Source of the DNA: Shigella phage A2
DNA: 64,000 nt
Direction: 5' to 3' (one strand)
Sequence record: OP197928
Below are positions 57,863-59,903 of this stretch, piece by piece. The translations under genes and the position numbers were made by a program. How positions within the stretch are numbered: position 1 is the first letter of the stretch; every line of letters begins with the position of its first letter. A model generated the notes under the pieces. The model ran no database searches. It was not told the origin of the DNA and worked only from the letters and a program-made list of their open reading frames with translations.

Positions 57863-58050
57863 TATTCTTCTACATGTTGTTTACGACCTTTCTTATCAAT
57901 AAAGGTATATTCAACGAATGTTCCAATGTAGTCTTTATCTACATCATGTGGACTATTAATTGGACATTTAGTACGGCAAATGCGTTCCCATTGACGAATA
58001 ATTACTGCTTTGTTTTTAGGATCAAACGGATGCGGGTAATGTACTTTCAT
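57838..58050 (-). CDS. hypothetical protein, 70 aa
   Basis: minus-strand ORF. Confidence 0.45.
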   Translation of the reverse strand: MKVHYPHPFDPKNKAVIIRQWERICRTKCPINSPHDVDKDYIGTFVEYTFIDKKGRKQHVEEYCLKVTWL

Positions 58051-58501
58051 AATCCACCACTATTAAATCAATATCAGGAGTAAACATGTCGATTAATTTA
58101 GAAACCTTATCCCAATCGCCGCCAGCAATACCACAACCTATGCGTGGAATGTAAATTACTGGTTTAAACAAAAGGGTTTCTGCCTGTAGATTTAATTCTA
58201 TCATGCAGTTTACTAAAGCACCATAATCAAGATTAGGACCTGGTTCGTATTGCGTATACAAGTTATAACATATACCAAAACCATTAGGTTTATGTTTAAA
58301 AACAATAGACATATCGCCTAATTTATCACGAGAACCGTACTCAGTAGTGGTTTTATCTATTTCTAAAATTTTAGGATAGGCTCTTGCTAATTGACCCGCT
58401 ACACCTGAACCCATAGTATGAAAACAATTGCACCCGTGCGCAATAATATTACCTTGAAGAAATAGGGCGACAATATCGCCCTTGATATATTTTACAATCA
58501 T
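58022..58501 (-). CDS. macro-domain protein (putative ADP-ribose binding/hydrolase), 159 aa
   Basis: GDIV..(x)..NIIAHGCNC..MGSGVAGQLARAYP and C-terminal PRIGCGIAGGDW resemble macro-domain signature motifs (GDIT..VNAAN..GGGGV.GAI, ..STGVYGYP). Confidence 0.5.
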   Translation of the reverse strand: MIVKYIKGDIVALFLQGNIIAHGCNCFHTMGSGVAGQLARAYPKILEIDKTTTEYGSRDKLGDMSIVFKHKPNGFGICYNLYTQYEPGPNLDYGALVNCMIELNLQAETLLFKPVIYIPRIGCGIAGGDWDKVSKLIDMFTPDIDLIVVDYESTLPASV

Positions 58502-58839
58502 CTAGTACTCAATCCTCGATTATAAGAATCTACCAAACGGTCAACCATTGAATGACAAGCGGCTTTATCTTTTTCCTCCGCAACTGAACATTCTAAGGTA
58601 TTCCACTTTTTAGCATATCGTTTTAACAATGTATCATTTTTGTATCTGCTTGATTTATCTCTTTCTCCGTCTTTATATGCATATATTAATTTCTGTGCAA
58701 ATTCAGCTTGGCATGCTTTATTTTTCCCGCAATAATCCGCTGCAGTACGGTTTACATACTCTCTAATTTCAGTATATGATGTATCTGCTAACGCAGAAAA
58801 TGAAATTAATCCTATACATAAAACCAAAATTTTAGTCAT
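58498..58839 (-). CDS. secreted protein, 113 aa
   Basis: signal peptide MTKILVLCIGLISFSALA; 4 Cys. Confidence 0.5.
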   Translation of the reverse strand: MTKILVLCIGLISFSALADTSYTEIREYVNRTAADYCGKNKACQAEFAQKLIYAYKDGERDKSSRYKNDTLLKRYAKKWNTLECSVAEEKDKAACHSMVDRLVDSYNRGLSTR

Positions 58840-59377
58840 TTACTATTTCCAAAAGTTTATTATTTTTAAGGTAATTAGCCTTTTCTAGGACTTCAGAAGC
58901 ATATTTAGAGCCTGCTTTAACATTCCATCCCGAATTATAAGAGGATATTGCTTTTCTTATATCGCCCTTATGTATATTTAACCAATAAGAAAGTTCAATG
59001 TACGCCCAGGAAGCTGAATTGGATCGTTTATTCAACATTCTTTTTATTTCAGCATCGGTCATATTATAACCAAGTTCCTTAACTCTTGCTCGCATAGTAG
59101 GCAAATAATTTTGGAACATTCCATAAGCGTGATGCTTTGGTTTAGATTTTAAATTAACTCCGCCAGAGCTTTCTTGCCATAAAATAGCAGCCATTATATG
59201 ACCTAATCCGCTCTTGTGGATATTTTTGTGTGTTTTATATTTTCCATCCTTAGAAAACTGTTCCCCGAATTGATACGCGTAACGCATGTTATCGAGTTGG
59301 ACATTACTGAAAGTATGCTCGGAGCTATGTGCCATCATTGAAATGGCCAATAGACCAGCGAGTAGTGCTTTTCTCAT
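58832..59377 (-). CDS. secreted lytic-transglycosylase-like (SLT domain) protein, 181 aa
   Basis: signal peptide; SLT-like motifs WQESSGG, YGMFQ, SSYNSGWN. Confidence 0.5.
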   Translation of the reverse strand: MRKALLAGLLAISMMAHSSEHTFSNVQLDNMRYAYQFGEQFSKDGKYKTHKNIHKSGLGHIMAAILWQESSGGVNLKSKPKHHAYGMFQNYLPTMRARVKELGYNMTDAEIKRMLNKRSNSASWAYIELSYWLNIHKGDIRKAISSYNSGWNVKAGSKYASEVLEKANYLKNNKLLEIVND

Positions 59378-59384
59378 GCTTACC

Positions 59385-59846
59385 TCATTGAGTTTTAATT
59401 ACTGCTTTAGAAGCCTTTCCTGGTAAACGACGACTATTGATAATTGCCATCCTGCACTGGAGTGACGGGTTTTTGAACTTCTCATTAGGCTTACAAACTG
59501 TAAATCCAAGCCAAAGATTTCCATCTGTGATTTCTAAACGTCCAGGACGATATTCAACCCCATCAATAAAATCCTCGTCAATGTCAGGACGCGGAGGCAT
59601 ACTCAGGAATTCATTAACTTCTAAAACATGGTCTTTTATTTTATGGAATAATTCAAAAACATATGTCTCATCAATCTCCCGTTGAATTGCACGATCAAGA
59701 AGATGCTGAGAATATTTTAGATGAAACGATGAGACCCCTGCTGCTTTTGATGCCTCACGAATCTCATTGTTAATTTGACGAAACTCCGACTCAAAGTGAC
59801 GACGAAGCTTATTTCGACGGATAAAAACTTCTGTATTGATAGTCAT
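59385..59846 (-). CDS. regB: endoribonuclease RegB, 153 aa
   Basis: 153 aa, MTINTEVFIRRNKLRRHFESEF...; early promoter upstream. Confidence 0.9.
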   Translation of the reverse strand: MTINTEVFIRRNKLRRHFESEFRQINNEIREASKAAGVSSFHLKYSQHLLDRAIQREIDETYVFELFHKIKDHVLEVNEFLSMPPRPDIDEDFIDGVEYRPGRLEITDGNLWLGFTVCKPNEKFKNPSLQCRMAIINSRRLPGKASKAVIKTQ

Positions 59847-59873: not shown

Positions 59874-59903
59874 ATTATACCACAGTCAAGAGGAAAAGTA
59901 AAC
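59874..59903 (-). promoter_or_regulatory. early promoter upstream of regB
   Basis: reverse complement GTTTACttttcctcttgactgtggTATAAT. Confidence 0.6.

Follow-up and report, generated by a model that had tools for sequence, protein, structure and literature searches.

What do an apparently exported murein-cleaving enzyme and the small cysteine-containing protein encoded directly behind it do for a T4-like phage? T4 has three murein-cleaving proteins, and roles are known only for lysozyme E and the gp5 tail lysozyme. The remaining one, Vs.1, is conserved across the Straboviridae, with apparently exported relatives in the Ackermannviridae and Felixounavirus, and its function is a gap in a model system. 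The window analyzed here, a stretch of DNA of 64,000 nucleotides, comes from a Tequatrovirus, and its 57.8‒60.3 kb segment shares 99% identity with many Tequatrovirus (T4-like) genomes.

The two adjacent open reading frames named in the original prediction were both found on the minus strand with exactly the predicted boundaries, and they are the T4 genes vs.1 (58832..59377, 181 aa) and vs (58498..58839, 113 aa). The former encodes a predicted exported SLT/GH23 lytic-transglycosylase-like protein; the latter, annotated as 'valyl-tRNA synthetase modifier', was identified by its ORF, its match to phrog_1256 (5e-40), and its correspondence to T4 ORF 60.9/Vs. The pair lies between regB (59385..59846, minus strand; Pfam REGB_T4, 6e-69) and the 159-aa macro-domain ORF tk.4 (58022..58501, minus strand; Pfam Macro, 6e-8), whose product is named AdfM, the T4 anti-DarTG2 factor, in the HIDEN-SEQ preprint. 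Phage GiZh and T4 have the same order of transcription on this strand, namely regB, vs.1, vs, and tk.4. The stop of vs.1 and the start of vs overlap by 8 nt (ATGACTAA, 58832..58839, minus strand), and the start of tk.4 overlaps the stop of vs by 4 nt (ATGA). In the 1986 T4 sequence record (X04567), the two frames are listed as ORF 61.4 and ORF 60.9 only, and the name vs is absent. Downstream of tk.4 lies a 75-aa ORF (57635‒57862, minus strand) whose Cys-rich sequence (CEKCKW...CNDEMACDFDYWCYCSNKGC) points to a small zinc-binding protein; similar ORFs recur in related loci.

The 181-aa product had been proposed to be a secreted enzyme related to soluble lytic transglycosylases on the strength of three motifs, WQESSGG, YGMFQ, and SSYNSGWN, all of which are present in its translation. 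In the profile search that had been suggested as a check, Pfam SLT (PF01464) matches residues 61‒154 of Vs.1 with E = 1.4e-5 and 25.1 bits, above the gathering score of 21.3. The same family is precomputed for several homologues, and several carry the UniRef label 'Transglycosylase SLT domain-containing protein'. A tblastn search finds the Vs.1 family in 2045 phage records, and the PHROG matches of Vs.1 include lytic tail proteins and endolysin domains. In an alignment of 32 homologues with identities down to 40%, Trp67, Glu69, Gly73, Gly86, Phe88, Gln89, Tyr147, Asn148, Gly150, and Tyr159 are invariant. On these sequence grounds, the motifs are not chance resemblances. A second invariant acidic residue, Glu128 (about 58994‒58996, minus strand), lies in a conserved WAYIELSYW helix in 32/32 homologues.

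Since the direct HMM alignment of the Vs.1 family with MltE and Slt70 was too weak, the E. coli MG1655 sequences were placed on the family alignment with MAFFT --add, after confirming that MltE residue 64 and Slt precursor residue 505 are the Glu of the ES motif. Glu478 of Slt70 (mature numbering) is catalytic, and PDB 4hjy is the E64Q mutant of MltE. In Vs.1, Glu69 (codon 59171..59173, minus strand), which lies in motif I (W-Q-E-S-S) and is the predicted catalytic acid/base, aligns with MltE Glu64 and Slt70 Glu505, and the Glu69-Ser70 pair is invariant or nearly so. Motif II (Y-G-M-F-Q, residues 85‒89; 59111..59125, minus strand) is the counterpart of the G-L-M-Q of family 1, with Gly86, Phe88, and Gln89 falling on the GLMQ of MltE and Slt70. 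Likewise, Tyr147-Asn148-x-Gly150 of motif III (S-Y-N-S-G, residues 146‒150; 58928..58942, minus strand) falls on the AYNAG of both enzymes, which reads AAYNAG in Slt70. Since Glu69-Ser70 and motifs II and III align in this way, the catalytic Glu, on whose presence the original prediction had staked its reading, is there.

The AlphaFold2 model of Vs.1 (pLDDT 88.5, pTM 0.83) has the lysozyme-like all-alpha catalytic fold of GH23, with Glu69 at the C-terminal end of helix 59‒70. In a Foldseek search of the PDB with this model, the E-values were weak and the top matches were all GH23, namely MltD, a GH23 chitinase, g-type lysozyme, Slt, and phi6 P5. Sequence searches of the PDB with Vs.1, Vs, or the family profiles gave nothing useful beyond a single marginal match to g-type lysozyme. 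Since the 32 homologues have no invariant Asp between Glu69 and motif II, transglycosylase chemistry is favored over hydrolase chemistry for Vs.1. The assignment of Vs.1 as a secreted SLT/GH23 lytic-transglycosylase-like protein is supported by the Pfam match, the motifs, the fold model, and the signal-peptide-like N-terminus described below. This core result is not new, since the SLT similarity of T4 Vs.1 has been published: according to Nolan 2006, which cites Miller 2003, it corroborates earlier PSI-BLAST matches to lysozyme. The literature searched contained no experimental function of Vs.1 and no enzymatic, localization, or interaction data for Vs.1 or Vs; searches on vs.1, the tau peptide, and challenges to the Vs annotation returned only Nolan 2006, the HIDEN-SEQ preprint, and an expression survey.

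Export of both proteins was assessed by heuristics together with comparative data, and the signal-peptide N-termini claimed for the pair are borne out by these means (46/48 family members for Vs.1 and 43/43 for Vs). Analysis of the n-, h-, and c-regions of Vs.1 predicts a Sec signal peptide of residues 1‒18 (MRKALLAGLLAISMMAHS; 59324..59377, minus strand), with a positive n-region, a 13-residue h-region, small residues at positions -3 and -1, and cleavage after AHS (|SE). The count for Vs.1 refers to family members in which at least 8 consecutive residues are uncharged and a (-3,-1) site is present. The signal segment has a low pLDDT of about 53 in the AlphaFold2 model, and the mature protein is predicted to have about 163 aa, a mass of 18.8 kDa, and a pI of 9.65. 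Signal peptides are likewise present at the start of distant homologues in Aeromonas phage 31, Det7 (Ackermannviridae), and finno (Felixounavirus), each of which retains the ES, G-x-F-Q-N, and S-Y-N-A-G motifs. Those of Escherichia phage finno (L007:1801-2349) and Salmonella phage Det7 (gp70, L006:1753-2370) are thus putative exported Vs.1-like transglycosylases outside the Straboviridae. The Felixounavirus gene, which carries the annotation 'putative lysin', lies between rIIB and the polynucleotide kinase gene, with the spanin genes about 1.2 kb downstream of it.

The 113-aa neighbor is a clear member of phrog_1256 (5.2e-40) and PF26829, 'valyl-tRNA synthetase modifier', and PF26829 is present on all Vs homologues. 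Its residues 1‒18 (MTKILVLCIGLISFSALA; 58786..58839, minus strand) form a predicted signal peptide on heuristic and comparative grounds, with cleavage at ALA|D (|DT). The N-terminus is hydrophobic in all 43 distinct members, and 42 of them have a (-3,-1) site. A canonical lipobox (LSGC) takes the place of the signal-peptidase-I site in four homologues (L038, 3549‒3872; L039; L042; L058), with the N-terminus MKKLFVLLVVFALSGC..., suggesting that the family comprises a lipoprotein form and a soluble form. Vs of the window is two residues shorter than that of T4 (113 versus 115 aa), and the indel lies in the c-region of the signal peptide (SALA versus SASASA), as fits a segment removed from the mature protein. 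We found no in-frame start in vs that would give a signal-less protein retaining the first Cys pair. Since the family carries a signal peptide or lipobox and has no such internal start, Vs is predicted to lie outside the cytoplasm, where ValRS binding would take place. This predicted topology is hard to reconcile with binding to a cytoplasmic synthetase. According to PMC8076793, N-terminally His-tagged full-length Vs is insoluble in the E. coli cytoplasm.

Mature Vs would have about 95 aa and a mass of 11.0 kDa and is predicted to be helical. Four Cys had been counted in this partner protein; four are indeed conserved in the mature part (Cys37, Cys43, Cys84, and Cys95), whereas the precursor has five, the extra Cys8 lying inside the signal peptide and not being conserved. 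The spacings, C-x5-6-C and C-x8-10-C, are not zinc-like, and all 43 distinct sequences align with their Cys in register. Divergent four-Cys neighbors of vs.1 that the first HMM missed match phrog_1256 at 1e-29 to 1e-37 and PF26829, so that all belong to a single Vs family. The AlphaFold2 model of Vs shows four helices at low confidence (pLDDT 61), with Cys37 and Cys43 on either side of the helix 1‒helix 2 turn and Cys84 and Cys95 around the helix 3‒helix 4 turn. Taken together, these features lead to the prediction that Vs is exported and disulfide-bonded, with a mass of about 11.0 kDa. A profile search of 1.84 billion cluster representatives yielded 26 Vs relatives, all small and of phage type, together with one junk repeat protein, and no bacterial relative was among the representatives. 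No Pfam family recurs among 22 Vs members, the NCBIfam and PADLOC searches gave no matches, and the PDB fold search with the Vs model (pLDDT 61) returned only noise. A similarity of Vs to the four-Cys helical lysozyme inhibitors of the LprI/DUF1311 type or to the CxxxxC loop of Ivy was considered but not supported, as no such Pfam match appeared among the 22 members.

The constancy of the pair was examined in 55 IMG/VR loci around Vs.1 homologues, 51 of them T4-like, by inspecting the ORF after vs.1. In 51/51 T4-like loci, vs starts between -8 and +3 nt from the vs.1 stop, and nothing is ever inserted between the two genes. In 49 of these, the ORF following vs.1 has 99‒122 aa and its N-terminus is hydrophobic, with exactly four Cys beyond residue 20; the remaining two (L023 and L041) have a truncated vs beside an intact vs.1. 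The vs.1-vs block is the most persistent in the region and is kept in Acinetobacter-phage loci without regB or tk.4; the adjacency is found in phages that infect Acinetobacter, Aeromonas, Proteus, and Pseudomonas. The gene after vs in many genera encodes a third exported protein, which has two Cys (phrog_4957). This 130‒148-aa protein has a signal peptide ending in ...AWEKLPGYP and is encoded between vs and tk.4 in T4-like phages other than Tequatrovirus (e.g., L016:3866-4267, L053:3842-4267, and L052:3857-4303); it is absent from the window. Two further small exported ORFs occur in Acinetobacter-phage loci.

Other observations weaken the significance of this adjacency. A Vs-like neighbor of the Vs.1 homologue is absent in Aeromonas phage 31, Det7 (Ackermannviridae), finno (Felixounavirus), and four metagenomic loci. 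The synteny of regB and vs.1 is nearly as conserved as that of vs.1 and vs, and a distance-matrix (mirror-tree) test showed no specific co-evolution of Vs.1 and Vs (partial r 0.20, versus 0.56 for Vs.1 and RegB). We also discount the 8-nt overlap as evidence of coupling, since vs overlaps tk.4 too, by 4 nt; overlapping or tightly packed genes are the rule in this T4 region. In Aeromonas phage 31 (L005:2405-3096), a 75-aa signal-less ORF and a 146-aa putative lipoprotein (phrog_9490) lie between vs.1 and tk.4, so that an unrelated, putative envelope protein occupies the vs position.

The timing of expression can be judged from the position and strand of the genes, which suggest that vs.1 and vs are expressed early. 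In agreement with the proposal that Vs.1 is separate from lysozyme E and the gp5 lysozyme, vs.1 is located in the early region, far from t and e. A sigma-70-like match upstream of regB (TTTACT-17-TATAAT with TG; 59874..59902, minus strand) is the nearest candidate start of a regB-vs.1-vs-tk.4 transcript, as identified by a consensus scan in which such sites are no more frequent in the region than in shuffles. Directly upstream of vs.1 or vs, there is no match to a MotA-box middle promoter. One match of this type (TGCTTTA, 12 nt, TAGAAT) lies inside tk.4 (58195‒58220, minus strand), and the pattern is enriched across the window (14 matches versus 3.9 expected). A terminator-like hairpin (58464‒58482, minus strand), with an 8-bp stem containing 5 G-C pairs and a T-rich tail, is located 16 nt past the vs stop, within the first codons of tk.4; it might cause attenuation after vs or be an RNA-processing element.

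Transposon fitness data for T4 are given in the HIDEN-SEQ preprint (Extended Data Table 6, sheet S8). In LB competition, the mean insertion counts are 26.6 for vs and 22.6 for vs.1, and those for regB, tk.4, and vs.3 are 178.6, 289.6, and 652, respectively. In M9 glucose, vs is the most depleted T4 gene (log2FC -2.19, padj 0), and vs.1 has a log2FC of -0.87 (p 0.0055, padj 0.155). The preprint classes both genes as non-essential, and insertions in each lower fitness; an essential score is given to the holin and spanin genes. On M9, a vs knockout forms plaques poorly.

The explanation that we consider best, which we in part infer and to which we would give about an even chance, is that Vs.1 is a periplasmic transglycosylase and Vs an exported partner in the same pathway. 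Vs.1 would be made before replication and exported through Sec, and its signal peptide would be cut after residue 18. Once in the periplasm, the mature protein may serve as a small, soluble lytic transglycosylase of family 1 (SLT/GH23): the MurNAc-GlcNAc glycosidic bond would receive a proton from Glu69, and attack by the muramyl C6-OH would close a 1,6-anhydro ring. Its task would probably be limited cutting or remodeling of the sacculus in the latent period rather than final lysis. Vs, translated directly after Vs.1, presumably from the same transcript, would also be exported, in some relatives as a lipoprotein, and would fold into a helical protein of about 11 kDa with two disulfides, Cys37-Cys43 and Cys84-Cys95. 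It would most likely reside in the envelope and serve the Vs.1 pathway, for example as a modulating or targeting partner. Against a common pathway stands the annotation of Vs, on biochemical and genetic grounds, as a cytoplasmic ValRS binder, with which the minimal-medium phenotype fits equally well. The weaker phenotype of vs.1, moreover, could be due to polarity on vs.

It is possible, although we lean against it, that Vs has been annotated correctly all along and that the two genes are linked by synteny only. Vs.1 would then work alone in the periplasm, and Vs, or a fraction of it escaping export, would bind cytoplasmic ValRS and alter the host enzyme, aiding translation when nutrients are scarce. 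The factor studied by Müller and Marchin in 1977 reportedly had a size of roughly 10 kDa, close to the 11.0 kDa of mature Vs, and the classical work on vs is reported to have included in vivo stabilization of a temperature-sensitive ValRS, which, if correct, is real evidence that the true vs product acts in the cytoplasm. The name 'valyl-tRNA synthetase modifier' is given to the family in every database, and the strong depletion of vs in M9 glucose agrees with a role under scarcity. The mirror-tree result, the Vs.1 homologues that have no Vs, and the commonness of overlaps in the region are likewise as expected from synteny only. However, the conservation of a Sec-type or lipoprotein signal, together with the disulfide-like spacing of the four invariant Cys, fits poorly with a cytoplasmic binder, and no alternative start would provide a cytoplasmic isoform. 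ORF 60.9 was also unnamed in the original 1986 record, and the family is kept beside vs.1 in phages of four further host genera.

The partner reading can be carried further: Vs (disulfide-bonded and periplasmic or lipid-anchored), Vs.1, and, in many T4-like phages, the phrog_4957 protein may form a conserved envelope module, with the ValRS label being wrong or artefactual. We put this forward tentatively and doubt it more than we believe it. The ValRS modification would then have been assigned to the wrong ORF, or would reflect periplasmic Vs meeting ValRS after cell breakage, and vs mutants would fare poorly in minimal medium because of a cell-envelope phenotype.

It is improbable that Vs is instead a dedicated periplasmic inhibitor (antidote) of Vs.1 that restrains the enzyme until lysis, after the models of T4 Spackle for the gp5 lysozyme and of the immunity proteins of type VI muramidase effectors. 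If Vs did no more than neutralize Vs.1, insertions in vs.1 should be neutral whether or not they are polar on vs, yet they are depleted like those in vs in LB and mildly in M9; since vs.1 disruption is not neutral, a role of Vs as a mere antidote is disfavored. Neither sequence nor fold comparison linked Vs to Ivy, PliC/MliC, PliG, LprI, or Spackle, the fold comparison being made with a model of pLDDT only 61, and the two loci with a truncated vs beside an intact vs.1 do not suit an antidote. That Vs.1 is a second, SAR-type endolysin, held inactive in the inner membrane by its N-terminus until holin action dissipates the membrane potential and then acting with lysozyme E, seems very unlikely: Ala, Gly, Ser, and Leu abound in its h-region, the Felixounavirus homologue is a 'putative lysin' near spanin genes, and the PHROG matches include lytic tail proteins and endolysin domains, but the h-region is short (about 13 residues) and followed by conserved small -3/-1 residues (AHS, AHG, AYG, and VFA) as in cleaved signals, vs.1 lies among prereplicative genes far from t and e, and its insertions are tolerated whereas those two lysis functions, holin and spanin, have genes that score as essential.

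If Vs is periplasmic, a 50-year-old label on about 800 matching phage records would have to be revised, and the newly reported minimal-medium phenotype of vs would speak for envelope physiology rather than translation. While the Vs.1 part of this work repeats a published annotation, what merits follow-up is that Vs is predicted to be exported and that its gene always sits behind vs.1.

Among known systems, the closest to Vs.1 are the small 'specialized' family-1 transglycosylases with a signal peptide, namely EtgA, P19 of plasmid R1, IagB/IpgF, and the VirB1-type enzymes, alongside which MltE is grouped. The identity of Vs.1 to these proteins is only 15‒20%, and Vs.1 differs from the specialized enzymes in its highly conserved N-terminal segment (residues 19‒58, FSNxQLDNLxYAYxFGEQ). 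The specialized transglycosylases are encoded inside secretion-system operons, whereas vs.1 belongs to a lytic phage and lies among early genes; we know of no trans-envelope machine that Vs.1 would serve. EtgA needs a second acidic residue, Asp60, and PDB 4xp8 is its D60N mutant; a counterpart of Asp60 is not evident in Vs.1. Also close are the catalytic domains (Pfam SLT, PF01464) of E. coli Slt70 and of Pseudomonas Slt and MltF. In comparison with Slt70, which has superhelical U and L domains, and MltF, which has an ABC-like domain, Vs.1 is a bare catalytic module. The phage-encoded phi6 P5, phiKZ gp144, and T7 gp16 domain share the lytic-transglycosylase fold with Vs.1. However, they are virion-associated entry enzymes or endolysins, whereas Vs.1 has a predicted Sec signal, is non-essential, and is encoded in the early region.

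For Vs, the likeness to Spackle, Ivy, PliC/MliC, and PliG is one of kind only: small, exported, disulfide-containing proteins encoded in the same genome as a murein-cleaving enzyme. T4 Spackle acts on the gp5 lysozyme. Its gene, sp, is listed for a periplasmic protein in the HIDEN-SEQ preprint. With the Vs family as annotated (phrog_1256, PF26829), the sequence of Vs fits well, while its predicted topology, with a signal peptide or lipobox and conserved Cys pairs, is unlike that of a cytoplasmic synthetase-binding protein.
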